Shown piece by piece: positions 1 to 56,782 of a DNA stretch of 64,000 bases. Position 1 is the stretch's first letter; every line of letters starts with the position of its first letter. The stretch is from Nannocystis sp. RBIL2. Its GTDB lineage: Bacteria; Myxococcota_A; Polyangia; Nannocystales; Nannocystaceae. The DNA lies in contig NZ_JAPNJW010000001.1 in assembly GCF_026626745.1 (NCBI RefSeq), positions 652,311 through 716,310 of the forward strand, given 5' to 3'. The notes under the pieces are model-generated. The model was not told the origin of the DNA. It worked only from the letters and a program-made list of their open reading frames with translations, and did not search any database. The translations under genes and the position numbers were made by a program.

Positions 1-657
1 GTTGCTGTTCTTCGCCGCCTGCGCCCCGTCGGCGGTGTAGCACGCCCACTGCATGGGCGGGTCGTGCGACAGCTGCCCGTTGGCGTGCATCATCAGCGCG
101 CACTGCTGGGCCTTGGCGTCGAGCCCCGCGTCGTGCTCGACCGCCGGCAGCCCGGCCAGCCAGCGGTACAGGTTGATCAGCTTGAGCGCGTTGTCGCGGC
201 CCGGCGCGCCAGTGTCGCCCGCCTGACAGCCGGCGACCGCCCCGCTCCATGTCCCTTCGGACATGTCCGTTCGGTCCGCCGTCCAGCGCGCGCACACCTC
301 CGCCGCCGGATCGACCGGCTCGCCGGTCGTGGTGGTGATGTCGCCGGTGGTCGTCGAAGCCGCGCCGGACGTCCCGCTGTCGGTCGGACCTGGCCCCGAG
401 GACACCTCGTCCGGCCCCGTGGTCGTGGTCCCGGCGACGCTCGTGCTCGTCGGCTCCTCCGCGGTCGACGCCTCGCTGGGGCCCGCCGCGCTCGCATCGC
501 TCGTCCCCGGTCCGCTGCTCGCCGCGCTCGCGCCGGCGCTCGTCGCCCCGCTCGCGGTCTCGGGCGCGCCGATGCTCTCGGTCACCTCCGCGACGCCCGA
601 ATAGCAGCCGACGACGAGCATGGACATCGACGCGAGGACGACGCGAAACGGCAGCAT
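1..657 (-). CDS. CAP/SCP (PR-1-like) domain lipoprotein; partial, 3' end lies beyond the window start
   Basis: Manual minus-strand translation gives MLPFRVVLASMSMLVVGCYSG (signal peptide plus lipobox), then a Ser/Thr/Gly/Ala-rich linker, then a CAP-like region (...NALKLINLYRWLAGLPAVEHDAGLDAKAQQCALMMHANGQLSHDPPMQWACY...). The frame is GC3-rich. It runs off the window edge, so it is absent from the ORF track. The antisense plus-strand ORF 64..1026 is an Arg/Ala-rich shadow. Confidence 0.5.
   Translation of the reverse strand, partial: MLPFRVVLASMSMLVVGCYSGVAEVTESIGAPETASGATSAGASAASSGPGTSDASAAGPSEASTAEEPTSTSVAGTTTTGPDEVSSGPGPTDSGTSGAASTTTGDITTTTGEPVDPAAEVCARWTADRTDMSEGTWSGAVAGCQAGDTGAPGRDNALKLINLYRWLAGLPAVEHDAGLDAKAQQCALMMHANGQLSHDPPMQWACYTADGAQAAKNSN
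247..274 (+). repeat. CATGYCC-family repeat, 2 units (CCATGTCCC / GGACATGTCC), inside the CAP lipoprotein CDS
   Basis: Seen in the sequence. Confidence 0.7.
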
Positions 658-907
658 CTCCCCCGAATACGACCCAACCGCGGCGACCGTCAACCCGCGC
701 GCCCAGCGGCTCGCGCCCGCTCGTGGGGTCGACGAGCCGCGACGCGATCGCGCGACCCCGCAGTCATATCCTCGCCTCGGTCGACCCGCGATTGCGACCT
801 GCAGCTCGTTCACCTCGGCTTCGCGTCTGCAGACCGTCGACCCGACAGCGAAGTGTGGACCGACGACGCGCTCCGCAGCGCTCGAGCTCGCGTCGCGCGC
901 CGCGCCG

Positions 908-3232
908 TCAACTCGGCGCCGCGACCTTGCGGCTCTCGGCCACGATCCGCACCAGATCGGCCTCGTCCTCGCACAGCGCCACGATCAGGTCGCCCGGCAC
1001 CAGCGCCTCGTCCGGCCGCGGGTTGACGATCAGCCGCCGCCGCAGCTCCGCGTGCGACGTCCCGCCCGCCGGCGCCTTGCCGCCCGGATCGGCAGCGCGA
1101 TACAGCCCCAGGGGCACCGCGCCGCCGCGGCCTTGCACCTCGAGCAGCGCGCGCCGGGCCTTGCGCCACGGCTGTCCGATGAGCCAGGTCGGCGCCGGCG
1201 CCGTGTAGACCTCGGCGTTGTCGTCGGCGAACGCCACCACGCGGTTGAACAGCTCCGCGAACGCGCGGTCGCGGCACGCCATCACCAGCCAGCGGTGCGC
1301 CAGCGCCTGGCAGTCGACCGGCACCAGCCAGGCCGCGAACGGCGAGAACACCTCCTCGCGCTCCGCCTCCGACGTCTCGACCAGAGTCACCGGCAGCGCC
1401 GGCGCAGTGCGGGCGATCTCCACCGACGTCGCCGCCACCCCGAGCGTCCGCGCCCGCTGACCGCCGCCGATCGGGTCGCGCGCGCACGCCTGATGGACCG
1501 CGCGGGCGATCCGCAGCGGATCGTAGCTGGCCCCCGACCCGTCGCCGTCGCCGAGCACGATCACCCGCGACGCCCGCGGCAGCCGCAGCCCCGCCAGGTC
1601 CTCCGGCACCTCCGGGTTCGAGTGGTGGATCGTCAGCGCCTTGACGCGCGCCAGCTGCAGCCGCACCCGCCGCGGCAGCGCGTCGGACACCACCACGTGC
1701 AGCGGCCGGTGCCGCGTCGGCCCCGGGCTGCGCAGCAGACGGATCAGCGGCAGCATGTCCTCGCGGAAGTTCAGCACCACCAGGTGCTTGTTGAGCCGCC
1801 GCCACAGCCGCGTCTGCTCCTGCGCGAAGATGTTGGTCAGCGTCGCGGTGAACCACGCCAAAAGGCCCAGCCCGAGGATCGTCGCCGCCGCCCCGACCAG
1901 CCGCGCCGTCGGCGTCTTCAGCGTCTCGGTCGTGAAGTTGCCGGTGGCGAACGTGTTCATCTCCCAGAACGAGTCGTTCAGCGTCCGCAGCCTGGCGTTC
2001 GAGTCATGTTCCAAAGACCAGACGATGAACGTCGACAGCGTCACCACGCACGCGAACGCGGCGAACGGCACCAGCGGGTTCGACAGCTGGCTCTCGATGC
2101 CCGCGCCCGGGACCCGCCGCCGCCGCAGCGCCCGGCGCACCAGGTACAGCACCACCCCTAGCGCCGCCGCGAACGCCCCGCCCTGCAGCCACGCCTGCCG
2201 GCGCTCGCTGGTCTCGTGCAGCTCGGCCACCGGGTGGAGCGGGATCGGCTCGCGCTCGGCGAACCCGCGCCACTCCACGCGGACCTTGAGGCTCGCGTAC
2301 TGCTCGTCGCGCGCGAGCTTCTTGAGCCCCTGGACCATCGCCTCGACCGCCAACCGGCGGTCGGCCAAAAAGCCCTCGTCTTCCACCCGCTCGCGCGGCG
2401 TCGCCACCAGCACCACCGAGCTCACGCACACCGTCGGCATGCTGTACTCGAGGCCCGGATACGTCCCGGTCTCGATCGGGCAGATCCGGTAGTACGGGTA
2501 GCCGTCGATCAGGCGGTTCAGCACCGCCTCGGGCAGCGGGTTCAGGGTCGCCAGGCCTGACGCCAGCACGTCGCGGATCTCCGCGTGCCCCGGCTCGGTG
2601 GTCCGCAGCATCGTCAGCAGCTCGCGCCGGCTCATCGCCGCCAGCGCCTCGTCGGCCGTGCCCGTGAACAGCGGCAGCTGCTCCGCAGTGTGACCCGCCG
2701 CGCCGAGGATCACCTTCGCCGTCTCGTAGCTGCCCGAGCCGTCCTTGCCCATGAACAGCGGCTCGCGGCCGATGTCGTCGAACTCCTCGAGGCGCACCGG
2801 CCGGCGCACCAGCACGTGGACCGCCGCGTCGGACACCGCCGCGATCACCCGCAGCTCGGCCTTGTCGGCCTCCTCGGGCGACAGCTTGCACATCCAGCCG
2901 CCCTTCGGGATCCCGCTGTCGCCCGCGTCCGCGTCCGCCTGCCCGGCCTTGAACGCCTCCGCCGCCACGTCGTACTGCACCAGCGCCGCGTCGAGCTCGC
3001 CCGACAGCAGCTTGTGGACGTTCTCGCACGAGCCCTTGGTGGACTCCGGCGCGATCGTCACCCGCCCCTCGCCCTGGACCGCCTCGGCCAGGGCGTGCGC
3101 GGTCACGTCGAACCCGCCCTTCTTCGCCCCCGAGCCGAAGCGGACCACGATCGCCTCGCCCGCCTGCGCCGCACCTGTCTGCAGGAACATGCCCAGGAGG
3201 ACAGGCGCCATCGGCCATGTCCGCGAGGACAT
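908..3232 (-). CDS. TAXI-family TRAP-type substrate-binding domain fused to a 2-TM ion-channel pore and RCK (TrkA-N/TrkA-C) domains
   Basis: ORF 908..3763 trimmed to ATG 3232 (MSSRTWPMAPVLLGMFLQTGAAQA, signal peptide); an alternative ATG lies at 3211. TAXI hallmarks are present (IVVRFGSGAKKGGFDVT...ESTKGSCENVHKLLSGELDAALVQYDVA). Then come TM helices and a pore-like loop (FWEMNTFATGNFTTE), followed by a Rossmann-type RCK (HLVVLNFREDMLPLIRLL) and a TrkA-C-like end (VPGDLIVALCEDEADLVRIV). The N-terminal 177 codons of the ORF are Gly/Arg-rich junk. Confidence 0.65.
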   Translation of the reverse strand: MSSRTWPMAPVLLGMFLQTGAAQAGEAIVVRFGSGAKKGGFDVTAHALAEAVQGEGRVTIAPESTKGSCENVHKLLSGELDAALVQYDVAAEAFKAGQADADAGDSGIPKGGWMCKLSPEEADKAELRVIAAVSDAAVHVLVRRPVRLEEFDDIGREPLFMGKDGSGSYETAKVILGAAGHTAEQLPLFTGTADEALAAMSRRELLTMLRTTEPGHAEIRDVLASGLATLNPLPEAVLNRLIDGYPYYRICPIETGTYPGLEYSMPTVCVSSVVLVATPRERVEDEGFLADRRLAVEAMVQGLKKLARDEQYASLKVRVEWRGFAEREPIPLHPVAELHETSERRQAWLQGGAFAAALGVVLYLVRRALRRRRVPGAGIESQLSNPLVPFAAFACVVTLSTFIVWSLEHDSNARLRTLNDSFWEMNTFATGNFTTETLKTPTARLVGAAATILGLGLLAWFTATLTNIFAQEQTRLWRRLNKHLVVLNFREDMLPLIRLLRSPGPTRHRPLHVVVSDALPRRVRLQLARVKALTIHHSNPEVPEDLAGLRLPRASRVIVLGDGDGSGASYDPLRIARAVHQACARDPIGGGQRARTLGVAATSVEIARTAPALPVTLVETSEAEREEVFSPFAAWLVPVDCQALAHRWLVMACRDRAFAELFNRVVAFADDNAEVYTAPAPTWLIGQPWRKARRALLEVQGRGGAVPLGLYRAADPGGKAPAGGTSHAELRRRLIVNPRPDEALVPGDLIVALCEDEADLVRIVAESRKVAAPS

Positions 3233-3238
3233 GCCCCG
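3186..3238 (+). repeat. CATGYCC-family array, ~4 units at 14-bp period, overlapping the start codon of the TAXI-channel gene
   Basis: AACATGCCC...GCCATGTCC..GGACATGCCCC. Confidence 0.65.
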
Positions 3239-3339
3239 ACGGCCAGCCCACCGCGCGGCCCGTCGCGCCCACGACGAGCTCGCTTTTTCGGCGCGCTCGT
3301 CTGGCGCGGCCGCGCCGTCCTGCCTCCGCTCCCCGCGTC

Positions 3340-4128
3340 TCACTCGGCCTCCCCGGTCAGCACCAGCAGCGCGCTCGCGTCGCGCAGCGGGCGGGCGGGC
3401 GACGGGCTCAGCAGCATCGCGTCCGAACCGCCCTCGCCGGGCGCGAACAGCCCGATCAGCGTCACCGGGCGGCCGCGGCGGTCGACCTCCACGTTCAGGC
3501 AGGCCTCGCGGAACGTCCCCGCGCGCAGCTCCGGCGGCACCGGCCAGGTCTCGACGCGCAGGCGCCCGCCGAGCAGCGCCAGCATGAAGCGGAACGCCCC
3601 GAGGTCGACGCACGCGTGGGCCAGCAGCGCCGCCCGCAGAAAGCCCGGGTAGAAGATCGTCGCCACCCCCAGGCCCTCGAACTCGTGGGTGGCCTCCGGG
3701 TCCTCGACCGCCACCACCACGTGCGGCGGCTTGCCCTTGCAGGCGCGCAGGATCGCCGTGCACACTAGGCGCGAGAACGCGTCGGTCTCGCCGTGGCCGC
3801 GCAGCGGCAGCACGATGATCGCGTCGGCCGCCGGCAAGCCGGCGGTGTCGGCGAAGAAGCGCGCCAGCGCCTCGACCCCGCCGCTCGCCGAACCCTGCCA
3901 GTACTTTTGGACATGTCCCGCGGGCAACTCGGCCAGCGCCGCCGCGACCGCGTCGGCGGGCGCCGGCCCGATCAGCGTCAGCTCCGGCGCCGGCTCTGCC
4001 GCCGCGATCGCGCGCACCAGCCCGAGCGCCTCCGGCGTCCAGTGGATCACCACCCAGCGCGGCCTCGTCGGCCCTAAAAGCCCCGTTGCGAGCTCCTCCG
4101 CCGCCGCAGTGTCCCCGCGCTCCGTCAC
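3340..4128 (-). CDS. hypothetical protein with a Rossmann-like fold
   Basis: ORF 3340..4239. The diverse, GC3-rich part starts near ...PRWVVIHWTPEALGLVRAIAAA.... A candidate GTG start at 4128 is in frame. The far N-terminus of the ORF is Arg-rich junk, so the start is uncertain. Confidence 0.4.
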   Translation of the reverse strand: MTERGDTAAAEELATGLLGPTRPRWVVIHWTPEALGLVRAIAAAEPAPELTLIGPAPADAVAAALAELPAGHVQKYWQGSASGGVEALARFFADTAGLPAADAIIVLPLRGHGETDAFSRLVCTAILRACKGKPPHVVVAVEDPEATHEFEGLGVATIFYPGFLRAALLAHACVDLGAFRFMLALLGGRLRVETWPVPPELRAGTFREACLNVEVDRRGRPVTLIGLFAPGEGGSDAMLLSPSPARPLRDASALLVLTGEAE

Positions 4129-4542
4129 GCCGCCGCAGCGTCCGCCCCGGCGCGCCCGCCTGTCAAGCCGACTCCCCGCCTTTCGTCGCCGACACGATCG
4201 CTCGCGCCGATCGACGCGGCCACCTGTCCTGCCCGGCATCGTCGGCCGCGCGCTCCAGCCTCACGCCGATCGTCTGCGCCACTCGTCGCCGCGCGCGTGC
4301 ACCGAGACCTCGCGAATCCATCTCGCGTGGCGACTCGCCGCAGATGAACATGACCTCATCCAGCGCGCGCCCTCGCTTCGCTGCCACCGCCGCGTTGCGG
4401 GCCGCGCCTGGCTCGGCGCGGCCGCCCGGACTCGCCGCGCGCGTGATAGCGTCGGCGCCTGCGCTCCACCGAGATCCTCGCGCTGGCGCTCATCGCGCTG
4501 GTCTCCTTCGGCCTCAGCTACATCGGCGCCACCGTCGGCCTG

Positions 4543-5250
4543 GTGCTCGGTCAGCTGCGGGTGGCCCTCCTCGTCTACGCCCTCGGCAGCCCCGCCGCCG
4601 GGGCCGCCACCAGCCTCGCCATCTCCACCGCCGGCACCCTCACCGGCACCTGGCGCCACGCCCGCGACGGCCGCGTCAGCCTGTGGCTGCTGGCCAGCGT
4701 CGGCGCGCCCTCGGCCGTCGCCGCCTTCGCCACCGCGCGCTGGGCCGGCAGCGTCGACGCCCGCCTCCTCAAGGCCGCCATCGCCGGCGTCCTCCTGCTC
4801 ACCGGCGCCGCCATGCTGCGCCGCCGGCCCGAGCCCGCCGGTCCCTCCGAACATGTCCCTTCGCGCACCTTCGCCGTCCTCGCCGAGGTCGTCGTCGGCG
4901 CCGTCCTCGGCGCGATCTCGGGCCTCGTCGGCCTCCTCCTCGGCAGCCTGCGCCTGCCGGCCATGATCCGCTACGCCCGCGTCCCCCCGCCCGTGGCCGT
5001 CGGCACCAACATGGCGATCGGCGCAGTCACCGGGCTGTCGGCCGGCGTCGCCACCTTCCTCCAAGGACAGGTCGACCTCACCGCCTTCGCGGTCGTCACC
5101 CCGCTCACCCTGCTCGGCGCCAACCTCGGCGCTCGCCGCACCGGCGACCTCGACCCCGACAGCCTGCGCCGCTGGATCGCCTGGATCCTGCTCCTGTCCG
5201 CCGCCCTGATGCTCGGCGAACTCGGCCTCGAGCTCCGGCGCGCGGCTTGA
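4543..5250 (+). CDS. TauE/SafE (DUF81) family membrane protein (putative sulfite/anion exporter)
   Basis: ORF starts at GTG 4543. It is highly hydrophobic with repeated GxxxG TM helices. The in-frame upstream segment (EILALALIALVSFGLSYIGATVG) also looks like a TM helix but has no ATG or GTG, so the true start may be a non-canonical codon or there may be a sequence error. Confidence 0.55.
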   Translation: MLGQLRVALLVYALGSPAAGAATSLAISTAGTLTGTWRHARDGRVSLWLLASVGAPSAVAAFATARWAGSVDARLLKAAIAGVLLLTGAAMLRRRPEPAGPSEHVPSRTFAVLAEVVVGAVLGAISGLVGLLLGSLRLPAMIRYARVPPPVAVGTNMAIGAVTGLSAGVATFLQGQVDLTAFAVVTPLTLLGANLGARRTGDLDPDSLRRWIAWILLLSAALMLGELGLELRRAA

Positions 5251-5421
5251 CCGGCGACTCTCGTCGCCCGGCCGCGCGGCGACGACTCGTCCGCGAGCTC
5301 CGCCGGCTGACTCGACCATCCGCTCGCAGCGCCTGGCCCCGCGCGACGACTCGGACGCGAGCTCCACTCCCGGCTGGACCGGCCGCTTTCGTCGCCCGGT
5401 CCCGCGCGCTACCTTTCGCCC

Positions 5422-7304
5422 GTGTCCGAGCGCGACCGCTTCCTCGCCTTCGCCGCCCGGGCCGTGCCAGTCGCGTTCGGCGCCCGGCCGGCGCCCGGCG
5501 AGCTCGCCGCGCACTGGCGGGCCGCGACCCAGGCGATCGGCGCTCGCCTCGTCCTCGCCTGCGCGCGCGAGCGCCTCGTCGAATTCGACCTCCAGGACAT
5601 GTCCCTTCGCACATGTTCCTTGAGCCTCCCGCTGCGGCGGCGCCGGGCCTTCGAGCTGCACGCCGCCGACCTCGACGGCCCCGACCTCCCCGACCTCCCC
5701 GACCTCCTCCCGCGCCTCTTGCCCGCGCTCGCCCCCGCGGCTCGCGCCCGGATCGCGCGCGAGCTCGCCGACAGCCGCTGGAACCTCGCGCTCGCCCGCC
5801 TCGCCGCCGACCTGCGCCATCGGACATGCTCCGAAGGCCAGGCTTGGCCCGCCCCGCTCGACCCCGAGAACCTGGTCGTCGACGGCCACCCGTGGCACCC
5901 GATGAGCAAGACCCGGCTCGGCCTGCGCGCCTGGGAGAACCTGCGCCACGGCCCCGACCTCCTGGCCCAGGCGGCAGTCCACGCCGTCGACGTCGCCGCC
6001 GACCACGCCCAGCTGGCCGAGCCGGCCCTCTACGCCGACCTCGCGCGCGCCCTGTTCCCGGCCCCCCCGCCCGGCCTCGTCCGCCTGCCCGTCCACCCCC
6101 TCCAGCTGCGCCGCCTCCCGCGCCTGCTCGGCCCGCTGTGGGGCCGCGAGGTCCGTCCGGCCGGCCTGCCTCCGCTCCACGCGCGCGCCCTGCTCAGCCT
6201 GCGCACCGTCGCCCTCGTCGCGCCCGCGCTGCACCTCAAGCTCGCCGTCGACATCCACACCACCAGCGCGCGGCGCCAGGTCTCGCCCGCCTCGGTGCAC
6301 AACGGCCCGGCGATCGCCGCCCTCCTGGCCGCGATCCAGGCCGCCGACCCGCAGACCCGCCGCGGCCTGCAGATCCAGCCCGACCTCGCCGCCGCCGGCC
6401 TGCACCCCCGCCACGGCCCCGGCGCCGGCCAGCTCGGCGTCGTCCTCCGCCCCGACCCCGCCGCCCTCGCCCAAGAGCTCCACGCCGACCTCACCGCACC
6501 CGCCGACCCATCCGGCGCGACGCCGACCGCCCCCGGCACCGCGCCTGCCCCTGAGCACCTGTCCTCCGCGACATATCCCTCGGAACATGCCCCCGAGGAC
6601 CTGTCCCGTGCGACATATTTATTAGAGCATGTCCGATCGCGCACCCCGCAGCTGGTCGTCTGCGCCGCCCTCGGCGAGCGCCGGCCTGGGGGCGACCTCT
6701 TGTTGCGCGAGCTCGCCGCCGACTACCCCGGCGATCCGCGCGCGCGCCTCGCGGCCTTCTTCGCCGACTACCTCGACCTCCTCGTCCCCGCGGCCCTGCG
6801 CCTGCTCACCGCCCACGGCGTCGCCCTCGAGGCGCATCTACAAAACACCCTCCTCGTCCACGCCGGGCGCCCCTGCGGCTTCGTCGTCCGCGACCTCGGC
6901 GGAGTGCGGCTCCACCGCGGGCGGCTGGCCGCGGCCGGCCACGCCCCCGCGCTCGCGCCCGACTCCTTCACCTTGACCTCCGACCTCGCCGAGGCTCAGG
7001 GCAAGCTGTTACACACCCTCGTGCACGCCCACCTCGCGGCTGTGATCGGTTGGGTCGACGACGCCGGCGGCCCCGACCCCGACGCCCTGTGGCCCGCGGT
7101 GCGGCGGATCTGCCAGCGCGAGTGGGACCGCTGGGCCACCGATCCGGCGCTCGCGCGCGCGTGCGCCGACGATCGCGCGTTCTTCTTCGCGGCTACCTGC
7201 CGCAGCAAGGCGCTGCTGCGCATGCGCATCGACGAACGCGTCAGCGATTACGCCTATACCGAGGTCGCCAACGCGCTCGCCGAGGGGTACTCTTCCCCCG
7301 CCGC

Positions 7305-7308
<4 letters not shown>
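5422..7308 (+). CDS. IucA/IucC-family (NRPS-independent siderophore synthetase-like) protein
   Basis: Family hallmarks are present ([28 protein letters not shown]). The stop overlaps the next start as ATGA. Two in-frame insertions of the CATGYCC repeat lie inside the CDS, at 5595..5619 and 6553..6638. Confidence 0.7.
5595..5619 (+). repeat. CATGYCC-family, 2 units, in-frame in the IucA/IucC CDS
   Basis: GGACATGTCCCTTCGCACATGTTCC. Confidence 0.7.
6553..6638 (+). repeat. CATGYCC-family array, 6 units at exact 14-bp period, in-frame in the IucA/IucC CDS, with an AT-rich segment (CGACATATTTATTAGAGCATGTCC)
   Basis: Core positions fall at 6557/6570/6584/6598/6612/6626. Confidence 0.8.
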
Positions 7309-8237
<929 letters not shown>

Positions 8238-8252
<15 letters not shown>

Positions 8253-8273
8253 ACCCTGTCCCCGGAGACATTG
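8238..8273 (+). repeat. CATGYCC-family array, 3 units, between the prs-like gene and the nadE start
   Basis: GGACATGTCC..CCCTGTCCCC..GAGACATTG; the nadE ATG follows at 8275. Confidence 0.7.
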
Positions 8274-8274
8274 A

Positions 8275-10254
8275 ATGCACCTCGTCCGCGTCGCCGCCGC
8301 CGCCCTCAACCAGACGCCGCTCGACTGGGACGGCAACCAGGCCCGGATCGTCGAGGCGATCCGCCTGGCCCGCCGGGAGGGCGTCGCCGTCCTGTGCCTG
8401 CCCGAGCTGTGCATCCCCGGCTACGGCTGCGAGGACGCGTTCTTCGGCCGCGGCACGATCCTCGAGTCGTGGCGGATCTTGCAGGAGCTCCTGCCCGAGA
8501 CGAAGGGCATGGTCGTCGCGCTCGGCCTGCCGATCATGCACCGCGCCGCCAACTACAACGCGGTCTGCCTGGTCGCCGACGGCCACATCGTCGGCATGGT
8601 CGGCAAGCGCTTCCTCGCCGGCGACGGCATCCACTACGAGCCGCGGTGGTTCAAGGGCTGGCCGGCCGGCAAGTTCGTGCAGTGGGAGCACGACGGCCAC
8701 AGCTACCCGCTGGGCGACCAGATCTTCGAGGTCGGCGGCCTGCGGATCGGCTTCGAGATCTGCGAGGACGCGTGGGTCCCGAACCGCCCCGGCGTCGAGC
8801 TCGCCAGCCAGGGCGTCGACGTGATCTGCAACCCCAGCGCCAGCCACTTCGCGTTCGGCAAGCACGAGGTGCGCAAGCAGATCGTCCTCAACGCCTCGCG
8901 CAGCTTCCGCGCCACCTACGTCTACTCCAACTTCATCGGCAACGAGGCCGGCCGCGTCATCTACGACGGCGAGTGCATGATCGCCTCGTCCGGCCACCTG
9001 ATCGCCGAGGGCCCGCGGCTCGGCTACAAGGACGTCTACGTCACCAGCGCCGTGGTCGACGTCGACCTCGCGCGCATGGTCCACGCGCGCACGACCTACG
9101 CGCCCACGGTCGACGACAACGTCCGCCGGATCACCCGGTTCGACATGCAGCTGCCGACCGCCGACCTGCCGCCGCACGCCAACGCCCCCGACGACGCGCT
9201 GCGCAACGACAAGCGCGAGGAGTTCTCGCGCGCCGTCGCCCTCGGCCTGTTCGACTACCTGCGCAAGAGCCGGTCGCGCGGCTTCGTCGTCTCGCTCAGC
9301 GGCGGCGCCGACTCGGCCGCAGTCGCCTACCTCGTCCACCTCATGGTCACTCTGGCCACGCAGGAGCTCGGCGTCGCGGCGACCTGCGCCCGCCTCGGCC
9401 TGCCCGAGGGTTCGTGCACCACCCCGCGGGCGATCGTGCGTGCCCTCCTGACCTGCGTCTACCAGGCGACCGCCAACAGCTCCGACACCACCCGTAATGC
9501 CGCCCGCGCGGTCGCCGAGGCCGTCGGCGCCGAATTCCTCGAGTTCGACGTCGACCCGCTGGTGCGCGCCTACGTGCGCACGGTCGAGGGCGCGATCGGC
9601 CGCGAGCTCGGCTGGAAGAGCGACGACATCGCCCTGCAGAACATCCAGGCCCGCGCCCGCGCCCCTGGCGTGTGGCTGCTGGCCAACTTGCGCGGCGCCC
9701 TCCTGCTGGCCACCAGCAACCGCAGCGAGGCCGCCGTCGGCTACGCCACCATGGACGGCGACACCTGCGGCGGCCTGTCGCCGATCGCCGGCATCGACAA
9801 GGCCTTCCTGCGCCAGTGGCTGCGGTGGGTCGAGCACGAGGGCCCCGCCGGCGTCGGCCCCACGCCCGCCCTGAGCGCCGTCAACGTCCAGGCCCCGACC
9901 GCCGAGCTGCGGCCCGCCGGCGCCAAACAGACCGACGAGGACGACCTGATGCCGTACCCGATCCTCGACGTCATCGAGCGCGCCGCCATCCGCGACAAGC
10001 TCGCGCCGAAAGAGGTCTACCGGGTCCTCGCCAGCCGCTTCCCCGAGCACGGCCGCGACCAGCTGCTGCTGTGGATCAAGCGGTTCTTCCGCCTGTGGAG
10101 CCAGAACCAGTGGAAGCGCGAGCGCTACGCCCCGAGCTTCCACCTCGACGACGAGAACCTCGACCCCAAGACGTGGTGCCGCTTCCCGATCCTCTCGGGC
10201 GGCTTCGCCCGCGAGCTCACCGAGCTCGACAACGTCGTGCCGAAGAGCGGCTGA
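8275..10254 (+). CDS. nadE: glutamine-dependent NAD+ synthetase (N-terminal CN-hydrolase plus NAD synthase domain)
   Basis: A 659-aa ORF with a nitrilase-type N-terminal half (GFEICEDAW) and an NAD synthetase C-terminal half (VVSLSGGADSAAVAYL). Codon usage is clean. Confidence 0.85.
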   Translation: MHLVRVAAAALNQTPLDWDGNQARIVEAIRLARREGVAVLCLPELCIPGYGCEDAFFGRGTILESWRILQELLPETKGMVVALGLPIMHRAANYNAVCLVADGHIVGMVGKRFLAGDGIHYEPRWFKGWPAGKFVQWEHDGHSYPLGDQIFEVGGLRIGFEICEDAWVPNRPGVELASQGVDVICNPSASHFAFGKHEVRKQIVLNASRSFRATYVYSNFIGNEAGRVIYDGECMIASSGHLIAEGPRLGYKDVYVTSAVVDVDLARMVHARTTYAPTVDDNVRRITRFDMQLPTADLPPHANAPDDALRNDKREEFSRAVALGLFDYLRKSRSRGFVVSLSGGADSAAVAYLVHLMVTLATQELGVAATCARLGLPEGSCTTPRAIVRALLTCVYQATANSSDTTRNAARAVAEAVGAEFLEFDVDPLVRAYVRTVEGAIGRELGWKSDDIALQNIQARARAPGVWLLANLRGALLLATSNRSEAAVGYATMDGDTCGGLSPIAGIDKAFLRQWLRWVEHEGPAGVGPTPALSAVNVQAPTAELRPAGAKQTDEDDLMPYPILDVIERAAIRDKLAPKEVYRVLASRFPEHGRDQLLLWIKRFFRLWSQNQWKRERYAPSFHLDDENLDPKTWCRFPILSGGFARELTELDNVVPKSG

Positions 10255-15989: not shown

Positions 15990-16085
15990 GCCTGCTGTCG
16001 CTCCGTACCTGTCCCCGAGCACCTGTCCCCGAGCACCTGTCCCCGAGCACCTGTCCCCGAGCACCTGTCCCCGACAACCTGCCCC
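15990..16085 (+). repeat. perfect tandem array (GAGCACCTGTCCCC) x4 plus 2 to 3 degenerate flanking units, in the gcvT-gcvH spacer
   Basis: Four identical 14-mers at 16017..16072; related units at 16005..16016 and 16073..16085. Confidence 0.9.
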
Positions 16086-22352: not shown

Positions 22353-23447
22353 ATGCCGTCCGCGCTCCTCGCCGCAGTGCTCGCGTTCCAGGTGCCCCAG
22401 CCCCCGTCTGCCGGCGCGATCGAGTGGCAGGCGCCGGCGGGCTGCCCCGATCGCCGCGCGCTGGCCGGGGCGATCGCCGGCCGCCTCGGCCGCGAGCCCG
22501 CCGCCGACGAGGTCTCTCTGGTCGGGCGGGTCGAGCGGGACGGCGCCTCGCAGTACCACCTCGACCTGCGCCTCACCGTCGGCGGTCACGCCCAGACCCG
22601 GCGCCTCAGCGCTCGTCGCTGCGCCGCGCTGGTCGACGCCGCTGCGCTCCTGACCGCCCTCGCGCTCGACCCCACCGCCGCCGAGCGCGGCGGGCCGACC
22701 GATCTGGTCGCGCCGGAGGTCGAGTCCACGCCGACCGAGCCCGAGCCGCCTCCCGGCCCTGAGCCGGCCCCTGGCTCCGAACCCGCCCCGCCCGTCACCC
22801 TCGCCCCCGAGGCCGTCGTCGACGACCCTGCCGCGCCGCTCCAACCGCCCGAACCCGCGCCCGCGCCCGAGCCCGCCGTCGTCACCGCCGACGAGCCGCT
22901 CGCCCCGGCCCCGCCGCCGCGCAAGCGAGGTCCCGGCGCGCTGCTCCGCCTCTCGGCCGGCTTCGAGGTCGGCACCGTCCCCGCGCCCACCGCCGCGCTC
23001 GAGCTCGTCGCCGGCGTCCTGTGGCGGCGCGCTCGCCTCGAGTTCCACGGCGTCCACCTCGTCCCCCAGACCGAGGCGCGCCTGCCCAACGAGGTCCGCG
23101 TCTACCTGCTCGGCGGCGGCGCCCGCGGCTGCGCTCGCCTGTCGCGCGGCCGCTTCGAGTTCCCCCTGTGCGGCGGCGCCGAGCTCGGCGGCCTGCGTGG
23201 CCAGGGTCGCGGTCCGGGCGCGCGCGCGGCCACCGGCCTGTGGGCGGCGGTGCTCGTCTCGGCCGGCGCCACCTGGCGGTTTCACCGGCTGCTCGGCCTC
23301 AGCCTGGCCGCCCAGGGCCTCGTCCGCCTGGCCGCCCCGAGCTTCGACCTGGAGGACACCCCGGAGCCGGTCAACCTGTTCACCAGCGCGCCGGCGAGCC
23401 TGCGCCTGCTCCTCGGCCTCGAATTGCGCCTCGGAGACCCGCGGTGA
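22353..23447 (+). CDS. hypothetical Pro/Ala-rich protein
   Basis: ORF with MPSALLAAVLAF start; it has a central PEPAP-type low-complexity region and a C-terminal hydrophobic region. It is coding-like but has no recognisable domain. Confidence 0.4.
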   Translation: MPSALLAAVLAFQVPQPPSAGAIEWQAPAGCPDRRALAGAIAGRLGREPAADEVSLVGRVERDGASQYHLDLRLTVGGHAQTRRLSARRCAALVDAAALLTALALDPTAAERGGPTDLVAPEVESTPTEPEPPPGPEPAPGSEPAPPVTLAPEAVVDDPAAPLQPPEPAPAPEPAVVTADEPLAPAPPPRKRGPGALLRLSAGFEVGTVPAPTAALELVAGVLWRRARLEFHGVHLVPQTEARLPNEVRVYLLGGGARGCARLSRGRFEFPLCGGAELGGLRGQGRGPGARAATGLWAAVLVSAGATWRFHRLLGLSLAAQGLVRLAAPSFDLEDTPEPVNLFTSAPASLRLLLGLELRLGDPR

Positions 23448-23485
23448 CGGAAACCGTCTCGGCCGGGGACAGCCCCCACGGCCCC

Positions 23486-24979
23486 ATGCTGCTCGCCACC
23501 GACCGAGACGCGCGCTTTCGCGCCATCTACGACCGAGAGTTCCACTTCGTGTGGTCGGCCGCGAAGTACTTCGGCGTCCCCGTGGCCGCCCGCGACGACG
23601 TGGTCCAGGACGTCTTCCTCACCGCCTACCGCCGCTTCGACCAGGTCCACTACCAGGTCTCGGCGCGCGCCTGGCTGTACGGCGTCACCCGCCGCGTCGC
23701 CTCGCACTGGCACCGCGGCGTCGCCCGTCGGACCCGCCGGATCGCCGCCCTCGGCGACCTCACCGGCCACGTCGGCGAGGCCCCGCAGGAGCGCCACGAC
23801 GCCGCCCGCCTGCTCGAGCGCCTGCTCGCCGGCCTGCCTCGCGGCACCCGCGAGGTGTGGGAGCTGACCGAGCTGCTCGGCATGAGCGGCCCCGAGATCG
23901 CCGCCGAGCTCGAGCTGCCGCTCAACACCGTCTACTCGCGGCTCCGCCTCGCGCGCGCCCGCCTGCTCGAGCTGGCCGCCAGCCCCGAGCTGCTGGCCTC
24001 CGAGGTCGCCGAAGGCCGCCGCCGCGAGGCGCCGCCGGCCGACGCCGCCTCGCGCACCTGGGCCGTGATGGTCCCGCTGTTCGGGCACGGCAAGCTCGCC
24101 ACCGTGGCCGCCGCCTGGACCACCGCGCGCGCCGGCGTCATGACCACCCTCGTCGTCGCCGGCGCCACCACCGTCGTCGCGGTCGCCCCGCGCCAGGCCC
24201 CGGGCCGGGCCACCACCGCGCACGTCGAGGACCTGTCCGCAAAGCCATCTGCAGCTCGATCCAGCGGTGACATGTCCCGAGAGACAGCCTCTCTCCCGCC
24301 CGCCGGCATGTCCCGAGAGACAGCGACACTCCCGCCCCCCGACATGTCGCGAGAGACAGCCTCTCTCCCGCCCGCCGGCATGTCCCGAGAGACAGCCTCT
24401 CCCCCGCCCGCCGGCATGTCCCGAGAGACAGCCTCGCCCGCGATCGCCGTCACGTCTCGAGAGACAGCCTCGCTAGCGATCGCCGTCCCGCTCCAGTCCC
24501 ACGCCTCCCCGTTCTCGTTCGCCCACCTCCGCGCGCAGGTCGCCGGCGTGTGGACCCGCGCGACCGCCCCCCTGTCGCCGGGCCCGGCGGCCGACCTATC
24601 CCCGAGGACAGCCTCCCCCGCGCCCGCCGGCCGGGTGACGCGCCCGGCTTACGATCAGCTGCTGTCCCGAGAGACATCCGCGCGCTCGCCCGCCCGCGAC
24701 GACCTCGCCCTCGAGGTCGGCCTCCTCGACCGCGCCCGCGCCCGCCTCGACGCCCGCGACCCGGCAGGCGCCGCCCAGCTCCTCGACGCTCACGCGCGCC
24801 AGTTCCCGCGCGGCGCCCTCGTCGACGCCCGCGAGGCCGCCGCGGTCGAGCTCCTGTGCCTGCAAGGCCGCCCCGCCGACGCCGCGACCGCCGCCCTGCG
24901 CCTGGCCGCGCGCCTGCCCGACTCGGTGCTCGCCCGCCGCTTCGAGCGCTTCGTCTGCCCCGACGACGAGCCGCGCTGA
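23486..24979 (+). CDS. ECF sigma factor fused to (or read through into) a TM segment and a repeat-containing C-terminal domain
   Basis: Sigma-70 region 2 (DVVQDVFLTAYRRFDQ) and region 4 (GMSGPEIAAELELPLNTVYSRLRLARARL) are present. Then comes a TM-like stretch (VMVPLFGHGKLATVAAAWTTARAGVMTTLVVAGA). After that comes 6 x 12-aa tandem repeats MSRETASLPPAG, with no stop before 24979. Confidence 0.65.
   Translation: MLLATDRDARFRAIYDREFHFVWSAAKYFGVPVAARDDVVQDVFLTAYRRFDQVHYQVSARAWLYGVTRRVASHWHRGVARRTRRIAALGDLTGHVGEAPQERHDAARLLERLLAGLPRGTREVWELTELLGMSGPEIAAELELPLNTVYSRLRLARARLLELAASPELLASEVAEGRRREAPPADAASRTWAVMVPLFGHGKLATVAAAWTTARAGVMTTLVVAGATTVVAVAPRQAPGRATTAHVEDLSAKPSAARSSGDMSRETASLPPAGMSRETATLPPPDMSRETASLPPAGMSRETASPPPAGMSRETASPAIAVTSRETASLAIAVPLQSHASPFSFAHLRAQVAGVWTRATAPLSPGPAADLSPRTASPAPAGRVTRPAYDQLLSRETSARSPARDDLALEVGLLDRARARLDARDPAGAAQLLDAHARQFPRGALVDAREAAAVELLCLQGRPADAATAALRLAARLPDSVLARRFERFVCPDDEPR
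24272..24487 (+). repeat. 6 x 36-bp in-frame tandem repeats (ATGTCCCGAGAGACAGCCTCTCTCCCGCCCGCCGGC), each with a CATGTCCC core and a GAGAGacagcCTCTC hairpin
   Basis: Seen in the sequence. They encode a 6 x MSRETASLPPAG-like repeat in the ECF sigma CDS. Confidence 0.9.
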
Positions 24980-41102: not shown

Positions 41103-41186
41103 AGGACATGTCCTCATGGACATGCCCCCGAGGGCATGCCCGTACGAACATGCCCATGAGGCCATGTCCCTCAGGACACCTCACAG
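41103..41186 (+). repeat. CATGYCC-family array, 6 units at exact 14-bp period, between convergent genes
   Basis: CAT at 41107/41121/41135/41149/41163 and CAC at 41177. Confidence 0.9.
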
Positions 41187-44140: not shown

Positions 44141-44224
44141 CGAGCATGCCCCTCACGCCATGCCCCTCGTGCCATGTCCCTCGCGCCATGTCCCCGAGGA
44201 CATGCCCCGATCGACATGCCCTTC
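44141..44224 (+). repeat. CATGYCC-family array, 6 units at exact 14-bp period, between convergent genes
   Basis: CAT at 44145/44159/44173/44187/44201/44215. Confidence 0.9.
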
Positions 44225-45037: not shown

Positions 45038-45125
45038 CGGCCGCGGAGTGTAGCCGACTCGGGCCGTCCTCGAACTGGCCTCGGGCACTTCCCGCGGGGC
45101 CGGGCTCGCGCGTAAGCTGACGGAC

Positions 45126-45788
45126 ATGTACCGCCCCCTCCTCGCCGCCGTGCTCGTGGTCGCTGCCGTCGGGTGTCGCAAGCGCGAGGTCGTCGCCGAC
45201 ATGGACTACGACGACCCCAAGGCGGCGATCGCCACCATGGAGAGCGAGGGGCGCGAGTCGTGGGAGATGCCCGACCGGATCGTCCGCGCCCTCCCGATCC
45301 CCGACAAGGGCGCAGTGATCGCCGACATCGGCGCCGGCTCCGGCTACTTCTCGCGCCGGCTGGCCCAGCAGGTCCCGACCGGCACCGTCTACGCCGTCGA
45401 CATCGACGACGAGTTCCGGTCCCACATCGAGTCGCAGCGCGAGAGCTGGGGCACCCCCAACATCCAGCCGCACCTCGCTTTCTACGACGACCCGGCGCTG
45501 CCCGAGAAGGCCATCGACCTGGTGTTCGTCGCCAACACCTACGCCTATCTGCGCGACCGCGTGCGCTACTTCAAGAAAGTCCACCAGGCGCTCAAGCCCG
45601 GCGGTCGCCTCGCTATCGTCGACTTCCGGCCCGACGCTCAGCCGCCGGAGAAGTTCGCACCTGACCCGAAGTACAGGCTCTCGCGCGACGCCATCGTCGC
45701 CGAGCTCGCCCAGGCCGGCTTCGCCCTCGAGCGCGAGGAGGACTTCCTCCCGCACCAGTACTTCCTCATCTTCGCCATGAACCCTTGA
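45126..45788 (+). CDS. class I SAM-dependent methyltransferase, lipoprotein-type signal
   Basis: Motif I is present (VIADIGAGSGYFSRRLA). The start codon sits inside a repeat unit (GGACATGTACC). Confidence 0.65.
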   Translation: MYRPLLAAVLVVAAVGCRKREVVADMDYDDPKAAIATMESEGRESWEMPDRIVRALPIPDKGAVIADIGAGSGYFSRRLAQQVPTGTVYAVDIDDEFRSHIESQRESWGTPNIQPHLAFYDDPALPEKAIDLVFVANTYAYLRDRVRYFKKVHQALKPGGRLAIVDFRPDAQPPEKFAPDPKYRLSRDAIVAELAQAGFALEREEDFLPHQYFLIFAMNP

Positions 45789-48146: not shown

Positions 48147-48220
48147 GGGACATGTCTTCCGCGACATGTCCCAAAGCACCTTGCCGCCGGGACATGTCCT
48201 CCACGACATGCCCGAGCGCC
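48147..48220 (+). repeat. CATGYCC-family array, 5 units at 14-bp period, between rlmE and the pseudogene
   Basis: CAT at 48151/48165/(CAC 48179)/48193/48207. Confidence 0.85.
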
Positions 48221-56688: not shown

Positions 56689-56782
56689 TGGACATGCCCG
56701 AAAGGGCATGTCACCCGCGCGGCCGCCCCCGGCGACCTGAAAATCCACATGACCTCTCGGTCATGTCCCTTCAGGCACATGC
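56689..56782 (+). repeat. two hairpin-forming sub-arrays: GGACATGCCC-GAAA-GGGCATGTCA (56689..56713) and ACATGACC-TCTC-GGTCATGT (56747..56766), plus a further unit
   Basis: Perfect 10-bp and 8-bp stems seen in the sequence, lying between convergent genes. Confidence 0.85.

Follow-up and report, generated by a model that had tools for sequence, protein, structure and literature searches.

The window analysed here is a stretch of 64,000 nucleotides from Nannocystis sp. RBIL2, the genes of which were predicted with a simple codon-usage caller. It includes a gene for an NIS-synthetase-like protein, and the linker between the two domains of this protein carries an in-frame array of 14-bp units. Similar units occur elsewhere in the window, both within genes and between them. 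The features relevant to the array are as follows:

245-268, minus strand: two-unit copy in a CAP-domain-like gene, encoding DMSEGTW; conserved out to L029.
3171-3236, minus strand: five-unit array over the 5' end of the NMT1_3 gene, providing its start codon and signal-peptide N-terminus; conserved in L001-L005.
5422-7308, plus strand: host gene, NIS-synthetase-like (IucA_IucC and FhuF-like domains), 628 aa; described by Pfam, an AF2 model, orthologues and dN/dS.
5595-5618, plus strand: two-unit copy GGACATGTCCcttc GCACATGTTC, encoding DMSLRTCS; hairpin of -12.3 kcal/mol, z = -3.4.
5821-5831, plus strand: single core-like copy GGACATGCTCC, encoding RTCS; conserved in orthologues.
6487-6552, plus strand: Pro/Ala/Thr-rich low-complexity part of the linker, roughly 21-bp periodic; TRF row at 6483-6545.
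6555-6638, plus strand: six degenerate 14-bp units in the same linker, encoding a peptide of 29 residues (aa 378-406).
6609-6632, plus strand: AT-rich stretch with the codons ACA TAT TTA TTA, made up of the decayed unit 5 and its spacer.
16005-16070, plus strand: five near-identical units of a non-palindromic variant, GCACCTGTCCCCGA, 15 bp past a stop codon; z = +1.4, no hairpin.
41104-41183, no strand: reference intergenic array of six units filling the gap between convergent genes; folded on both strands.
44142-44221, no strand: intergenic array of six units between convergent genes; family match and folding.
48148-48213, no strand: intergenic array of five units, 11 bp past a stop codon; RNA fold z = -4.8.

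Both Pfam domains of the host protein exceed the gathering score. IucA_IucC (PF04183) covers aa 149-350 with 124.7 bits (cut-off 25; 5.9e-36), and FhuF (PF06276) covers aa 445-606 with 93.7 bits (cut-off 25.2; 2.3e-26). The AlphaFold (AF2) model of the protein, obtained from an alignment of 18 sequences, is of moderate quality (mean pLDDT 69). In the Foldseek comparison, it matched AsbB (3to3) over the full length with E = 1.6e-17, and IucC, DesD, AcsD, AlcC, IucA and SbnC with E = 1e-13 to 1e-16. As predicted by this model, the protein has the overall NIS-synthetase fold. It also contains the motif H-P-x-H-P-x-x-K-x-R, as in NIS siderophore synthetases, and the catalytic block of 13 residues is invariant in the window and the five closest species. 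The combination of both Pfam domains, the full-length fold and the HPxHPxxKxR motif is common to the host protein and the NIS siderophore synthetases IucA/IucC, AsbB, DesD and AcsD, but the linker between its domains is about 58 residues longer than that of AsbB (142 residues between the flanking aligned blocks versus 84).

The neighbours of the host gene are TauE, Prs-like, NadE and NMT1_3 genes. A neighbourhood with TauE, Prs-like and NadE is unlike a typical siderophore cluster, and inspection of the surroundings of the host gene revealed no obvious siderophore precursor or transport genes. The stop codon of the host gene overlaps the start of the Prs-like gene at 7305, and both this overlap and the synteny are kept among relatives. 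Orthologues of the host gene show a protein identity of 75-94%, and the ORF is unbroken in all six of them, counting the window and the five species.

Each unit of the array at 6555-6638 consists of a degenerate 10-bp palindromic core, GGACATGTCC, and a 4-nt spacer. The units are, in order, GCACCTGTCCtccg CGACATATCCctcg GAACATGCCCccga GGACCTGTCCcgtg CGACATATTTatta GAGCATGTCCgatc; their cores start at 6555, 6569, 6583, 6597, 6611 and 6625, in an exact 14-bp register, and differ from GGACATGTCC by 2, 2, 2, 1, 4 and 2 mismatches. The sum of 13 mismatches compares with 26 as the lowest six-unit sum when sequences of 64 kb were simulated 100 times with a first-order Markov model. The two-unit copy at 5595-5618 (GGACATGTCCcttcGCACATGTTC) has 0 and 2 mismatches to the core, and no pair as good was encountered in the 6.4 Mb of simulated sequence. 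A chance origin of the array and of the two-unit copy is ruled out by these simulations. This confirms the presence of six 14-bp units in frame within the CDS, as claimed in a preceding sequence-only reading; the boundary given there (6553) is 2 nt off the palindromic core, which is immaterial. The residues encoded by the array fall between the IucA_IucC and FhuF domains. No TIR or TSD of the kind that marks a MITE was detected at the flanks of the array, and no transposase gene was found near it.

The core with at most one mismatch was found 31 times in the window against 1.6 matches expected, and with at most two mismatches 95 times against 26 in simulated sequence; the spacing between copies is often 14, 28 or 42 bp. 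When 112 in-register units, taken from the window and five Nannocystis loci, were counted position by position, the result was nAGGACATGTCCCn, in which CATG(T/C)CC is near-invariant, while the spacers are variable and relatively AT-rich. Most arrays of the window begin 2-46 bp past a stop codon. The gaps between convergent genes at 41104-41183, 44142-44221, 48148-48213 and 56690-56713 are filled by arrays, the first of which starts 2 bp after the stop codon of the plus-strand gene and abuts that of the minus-strand gene. A metagenome scan with a three-unit pattern yielded 11 contigs with a GC content of 67-76%, and in seven of these 11 loci the arrays are situated between convergent genes, 2-20 bp from both stop codons. 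For the family in general, the usual place of an array is 2-20 bp past a stop codon, often in the gap of a convergent gene pair.

In-register arrays were found in all five Nannocystis loci, with 11-17 units per 22 kb. Among the 12 loci of other Nannocystaceae (Enhygromyxa, Plesiocystis and others), two in-register units were found in L009 and none in the remaining 11. The arrays at positions 245, 3171, 5595, 6555, 8238 and 10267 of the window are matched by position in L001-L005, and the array at 16005-16070, with its five units, corresponds to orthologous arrays of 3, 4 or 2 units. A search of the whole window against Rfam 15 gave no matches at the gathering score. The literature on Nannocystis repeats and myxobacterial REP provided no account of the family, and a search with the core sequence returned papers on the p53 response element. 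A phage-borne repeat was ruled out, as the two-unit pattern occurred in one contig among 2.9 million viral contigs. The density in the window, if extrapolated to a 12-Mb genome, corresponds to about several thousand arrays, a figure that is an extrapolation and not a count.

The self-complementary core allows every unit to pair with any other, and canonical arrays therefore make very stable hairpins on either strand. For the intergenic arrays, the folding energies lie between -39 and -56 kcal/mol on either strand, with z from -4.7 to -5.9 relative to dinucleotide shuffles; the reference array at 41104-41183 gives -40.8 kcal/mol (z = -4.7) on one strand and -55.6 kcal/mol (z = -5.9) on the other. 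The orthologous intragenic array of N. bainbridge, with its near-canonical units, has a z of -6.0, and the window copy of the same array no longer has any hairpin potential (z = -0.9). The arrays have no T-runs. The variant at 16005-16070 expands without a hairpin, and consequently array growth does not need one. Of 12 independent loci, 10 have a C/G polarity of the spacers that tracks the local GC skew, whatever the direction of the genes. This polarity fits better with a DNA-level or replication-linked process than with a purely RNA-level role, and the lack of T-runs and the hairpin-free variant also sit badly with the latter. Judging by position and folding, the arrays of the family may act in a REP-like manner, their hairpins serving gene 3' ends in both directions as transcription terminators or as protection for mRNA. 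The invariant core may be kept either by homogenisation or by a sequence-specific protein, which would recognise the core, as in (GGACATGTCCCCGA)3.

With four of the five common spacers, the canonical unit is free of stop codons in all six frames. Because 14 = 2 mod 3, a canonical array yields the same cyclic 14-mer (GHVPEDMSPRTCPR for the spacer CCGA) in whichever of the three frames it is read, so that only the total length of an insertion must stay a multiple of 3. The mostly stop-free unit and this arithmetic make an insertion into a gene survivable. Besides the genes listed above, a copy of the repeat was found in the TauE gene at 4849, and three arrays lie in predicted loops of an M28-like membrane protein at the metagenome locus L019. 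As copies are present in IucA/IucC, M28-like, NMT1_3, CAP-like and TauE genes, insertion into coding sequence is recurrent. An alignment of synthetic repeat-encoded peptides, compared with a database of 5.8 billion proteins, gave 347 word-sharing candidates and none at E <= 1e-3, the 42-residue profile being too short for significance in a database of this size.

The closest genomes are those of Nannocystis pusilla, N. exedens, N. punicea, N. bainbridge and N. radixulma, with protein identities of 91-76%. Residues encoded by the repeat are present in the inter-domain linker of every Nannocystis orthologue, with the consensus HAPEDMSxxTxPxxHVP. In the DNA alignment, N. punicea and N. bainbridge have six near-canonical units; N. 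exedens and the window have six degenerate ones, N. radixulma has four units at the orthologous site, and N. pusilla has seven, provided that the very degenerate first one is included. Two syntenic metagenome relatives (L029 and L030, 60-65% identity) have exactly three units, that is, 42 bp or 14 codons. In Enhygromyxa P0109 and the Nannocystaceae MAG P0060 the linker is absent, and "VVLRPDP" runs almost straight into "VVCAALGER". The suggestion that the array segment would prove to be extra relative to the IucA/IucC family is upheld by the alignment of homologues, in which P0060 and P0109 are without it and the linker of AsbB is shorter, as given above. In N. pusilla, about 28 codons of the array are read in another frame than in the window, between compensating -1 and -2 indels (the two peptides compared comprise 32 and 28 letters).

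These alignments show that the array predates the genus Nannocystis. The simplest history would be a single acquisition of three units before the Nannocystis radiation, in which a 42-bp copy would have entered the inter-domain linker, followed by gain and loss of units, point changes and decay. It had been proposed that the repeat is mobile or expandable. Expansion agrees with the number of units, three in the distant relatives and four to seven in Nannocystis, but a recent mobile insertion does not agree with an array that five species and two relatives have in common at one site.

The AT-rich stretch within the array, TGCGACATATTTATTAGAGCATGT, is real, as had been pointed out; its GC content is 33% versus 76% for the gene. 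The remaining predicted genes, with 15,345 codons, contain no TTA, which occurs here twice in succession; TAT, ACA and CAT have frequencies of about 1.4-1.5 per 1000 codons. Rare codons had been listed as ATA, TTA and TAT; TTA and TAT are indeed used, but there is no in-frame ATA. The place orthologous to this stretch reads CGACATTCCCCCGAGAACATGTCC in N. punicea, CGGCATTCCCCTTGAAACATGTCC in N. exedens and CGACATTTCTTTAAGCATGTAC in N. pusilla, the last being aligned as CGACATTTCTTT--AAGCATGTAC with CGACATATTTATTAGAGCATGTCC of the window. Close metagenome homologues carry the intermediate peptides RATFPLKHV, RATYFLKHV and RATYLLEHV. By this comparison, the AT-rich stretch arose as point mutations changed one unit and its spacer step by step: a CCCC-like spacer has drifted to TTTATTA, yielding both the AT-rich stretch and the TTA-TTA codons. 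An origin as foreign DNA was rejected in view of the N. punicea sequence at the same place and of the intermediates in homologues.

Pairwise dN/dS values were obtained by the Nei-Gojobori method for the window against the five species, with the frames anchored on the catalytic motif. Outside the linker, dN/dS is 0.21-0.39, and these codon comparisons show the enzyme to be under purifying selection. In the linker, dN is 0.24-0.40 versus 0.02-0.125 in the core of the protein, which is 5-17 times as high, and dS is 0.35-1.2 versus 0.10-0.32; linker omega is about 1 relative to N. pusilla. Since both dN and dS of the linker are above those of the core, the array is unconstrained as a peptide and as DNA. 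In the AlphaFold model, residues 360-405 form a coil with pLDDT below 50. The loop encoded by the array thus looks like a near-neutral passenger in a linker that is predicted to be disordered.

The segment at 5595-5618 is predicted to form beta-strands with a pLDDT of about 80. A second insertion of two units had been placed at 5595-5619. The two-unit copy itself is supported by the simulation, but the homologues do not support an insertion: P0012 has DLQGMVLRAGPV, with no difference in length, and in more distant homologues this part is longer. Degenerate versions of the copy, for example GGGCATGTCCctgcGCGCAGGTCC, are present in L029 and L030. No base differs among the five closest species at positions 5593-5623, and only two other stretches of at least 31 nt share this invariance, one encoding the catalytic motif and the other a C-terminal block; about as conserved are 8% of the 31-nt windows overall. 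The invariance of 5593-5623 may reflect protein constraint, a DNA/RNA-level role or homogenisation to the family consensus. The copy is nearer to the consensus in Nannocystis than in the distant relatives, which simple decay of an old insertion fails to explain.

Taken as a whole, the 84-bp stretch is probably an old, decayed intragenic copy of a dispersed REP-like family, tolerated in the disordered linker of a selected enzyme; in this strain the hairpin potential of the array is gone, and the enzyme is still selected. That the in-frame insertion is tolerated had been suggested together with gene decay as the alternative, and the six orthologues with intact ORFs and the low dN/dS of the core agree with the former and contradict the latter, decay being confined to the repeat. 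The host gene as a decaying pseudogene, with the repeat and the rare codons as signs of relaxed selection, would account for the two otherwise unused TTA codons of the AT-rich stretch and for the fast-evolving linker, but is very improbable given the core dN/dS of 0.21-0.39, the ORF intact in the window and five species with an invariant catalytic block, the conserved synteny with the Prs-like overlap, and the full NIS-synthetase fold of the model. That a currently mobile element was inserted here recently can hardly be reconciled with the data: the presence of the family at many unrelated loci implies that it spread at some time, but the same site is occupied in five species and two distant relatives, the units are degenerate, the neighbouring arrays keep their positions across species, and neither target-site duplication nor terminal inverted repeats nor a nearby transposase was detected.

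Selection may also be thought to act on the encoded peptide, for example as a His/Met/Cys/Asp-rich, metal-binding flexible loop (H..DMS..TC..H). The canonical 14-residue module does contain His, Met, Cys and Asp/Glu, the loop has long been retained, being found in every orthologue down to 60% identity, and the window copy keeps His in all three EH motifs. Nevertheless, this copy reads DLS and TY where the canonical module has DMS and TC and is thus without Met and Cys, N. pusilla reads the same DNA in another frame, the number of units ranges from 3 to 7, and the loop is predicted to be disordered; together with the elevated dN of the linker (5-17 times that of the core) and an omega of about 1 against the closest species, these features make a selected peptide quite improbable. 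It is unlikely, but less so, that the intragenic copies act as DNA or RNA, whether as a pause or processing hairpin, as a binding site for a core-recognising protein or as a slippage frameshift switch uncoupling the C-terminal domain. The near-canonical N. bainbridge array with its z of -6.0 speaks for such a role, as does the hairpin at 5588-5626 (z = -3.4), which lies in an invariant stretch of at least 31 nt; moreover, 14 bp is not a multiple of 3, and gain or loss of one unit shifts the frame. On the other side, the array of the window no longer folds (z = -0.9), with units too diverged for slippage, the excess of linker dS over core dS indicates no DNA-level constraint on the array, and the invariance of 5593-5623, matched by 8% of 31-nt windows, can equally be explained by the encoded beta-hairpin.

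Comparison with known systems shows that the old, decayed copy belongs to a family best described as one of REP-like extragenic palindromes with RPE-like in-frame copies. Like the REP, BIME and REPIN elements of proteobacteria, which are mobilised by RAYT, the Nannocystis repeats are short G+C-rich palindromes of high copy number, mostly extragenic, placed at 3' ends and between convergent genes, able to form hairpins and persisting vertically at orthologous sites for a long time. However, REP units are imperfect palindromes of about 20-40 nt, whereas the Nannocystis unit has 14 bp with a perfect 10-bp palindrome; REPs come in inverted doublets and the Nannocystis units head to tail with a fixed 14-bp period; and hairpins form within one unit in the REP type but between units in Nannocystis. 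Besides, a non-palindromic variant of the Nannocystis family also forms arrays. No mobilising enzyme came to light, and none of the 12 proteins scanned is a RAYT-type Y1 transposase.

Cyanobacterial STRR heptamer arrays, with a period of 7 bp, and the HIP1 palindrome pervade the genomes of their lineage and are found within genes as well. HIP1 does not occur in tandem, and the sequences, period and lineage of STRR and HIP1 differ from those of the Nannocystis repeat.

Rickettsia palindromic elements (RPEs) are dispersed palindromes found recurrently in frame within unrelated genes, where the encoded peptide is compatible with fold and function (PMC10969869). Recurrent in-frame insertion with retention of the host ORF is common to the RPEs and the Nannocystis repeat. 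An RPE is a single element of about 100-150 bp, and its host is an alphaproteobacterial parasite, whereas the Nannocystis insertions are multiples of 14 bp in a free-living myxobacterium with a 12-Mb genome; frame neutrality in Nannocystis comes from 3 x 14 = 42 bp, and there is no sequence similarity to RPEs. Membership in the RPE family was rejected because of the Nannocystis host and the 14-bp unit, the resemblance being behavioural only.

A broader and rather doubtful picture would be that of thousands of strand-polarised 14-bp arrays, with a core fixed by a dedicated (RAYT-like or DNA-binding) protein, acting as bidirectional 3'-end elements and, being free of stops and frame-cyclic (3 x 14 bp = 14 aa), repeatedly seeding peptide modules, start codons and signal-peptide segments. 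If true, it would provide a counterpart of the Rickettsia RPEs in a free-living organism with a large genome, with another architecture. The host gene represents a dated example of a non-coding hairpin repeat carried for a long time in an enzyme without killing it, and three features explain this tolerance: the linker is disordered, the unit is stop-free, and 3 x 14 bp makes a whole number of codons. Two misreadings are corrected at the same time, that of the AT-rich stretch as foreign DNA and that of the gene as a pseudogene. The family is very abundant and will affect gene calling, through spurious or extended ORFs and repeat-borne start codons, as well as assembly and possibly 3'-end biology, in natural-product producers with genomes of 11-13 Mb.

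Two further observations concern the surroundings of the array. A 19-nt inverted match pairs 5813-5831 with 6625-6643; as termini of a larger element around the catalytic domain these segments were rejected, the extension beyond the cores being missing in L003-L005. The low-complexity part of the linker at 6487-6552 corresponds to gaps in L002, L003 and L005 and is present only in the window, in N. pusilla and, partly, in N. bainbridge.

The spacers of the repeat arrays, both in the window and on the 11 metagenome contigs that match the three-unit pattern (L018-L028), share the base bias of the strand on which they are read, being rich in C where the strand is C-rich and rich in G where it is G-rich. 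The following arrays exemplify this polarity, as do loci L018-L028:

26987-27038 (window), array with spacer polarity
41104-41183 (window), array with spacer polarity
44142-44221 (window), array with spacer polarity

The sign of the local GC skew matches that of spacer C minus G in 10 of the 12 independent loci (the window and the 11 contigs), and the direction of the flanking genes makes no difference to this agreement in the same loci. The orientation of the arrays may be set relative to replication, rather than transcription.

One array of the window consists of non-palindromic units:

16005-16070, 15 bp past a stop codon, variant array of five near-identical units GCACCTGTCCCCGA

No RNA hairpin is predicted for this array (fold z = +1.4), and the orthologous arrays of other species contain 2-4 units. 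It looks like a recent slippage expansion that is independent of palindromy.

Repeats were also found within reading frames other than that of the IucA/IucC-like gene:

L019 1621-4206 (-), M28-peptidase-like membrane protein, metagenome
24271-24471, within ORF 23444-24979 (+), tandem repeat with a period of 36 bp, 5.6 copies and 87% matches, including CATGTCCCGAGAGACAG

The L019 protein carries three separate in-frame repeat-derived segments (RHVLKDMPRGTGP once and KDMSAWPGPAA twice), which fall between predicted hydrophobic stretches. ORF 23444-24979 has an ECF sigma factor (Sigma70_r2 and r4_2) at its N-terminus and continues into a long C-terminal extension, where the 36-bp repeat is located. 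Either a second repeat of a related kind may be translated in frame here, or the ORF may be mis-extended.

In the IucA/IucC-like gene, two TTA codons stand back to back at 6618-6623, while TTA does not occur among the 15,345 other codons of the region. Should their cognate tRNA be scarce, the pair could act as a translational bottleneck, by analogy with Streptomyces bldA; the window contains no tRNA genes. The catalytic domain of the same gene lies between the arms of a 19-nt inverted match (5813-5831 and 6625-6643, 95% complementary), which reaches 9 nt past both cores. It is probably due to chance, judging from its lack of conservation in N. punicea, N. bainbridge and N. radixulma.

The gene itself belongs to a conserved block:

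1-10254 (window), also in the syntenic metagenome relatives L029 and L030, block around the IucA/IucC-like gene

Its members are a CAP-domain protein, an NMT1_3 binding protein, an unknown gene, TauE, IucA/IucC, a Prs-like phosphoribosyltransferase, whose start overlaps the IucA/IucC stop, and NadE. This composition differs from that of a typical siderophore cluster, and therefore the product of the enzyme may be something besides a siderophore. The likely NMT1_3 start coincides with the ATG of a repeat core at 3227-3236 (- strand), and for the gene at 45126 the predicted start codon likewise coincides with the ATG within a palindromic core (45122-45131). Repeat units may donate start codons.
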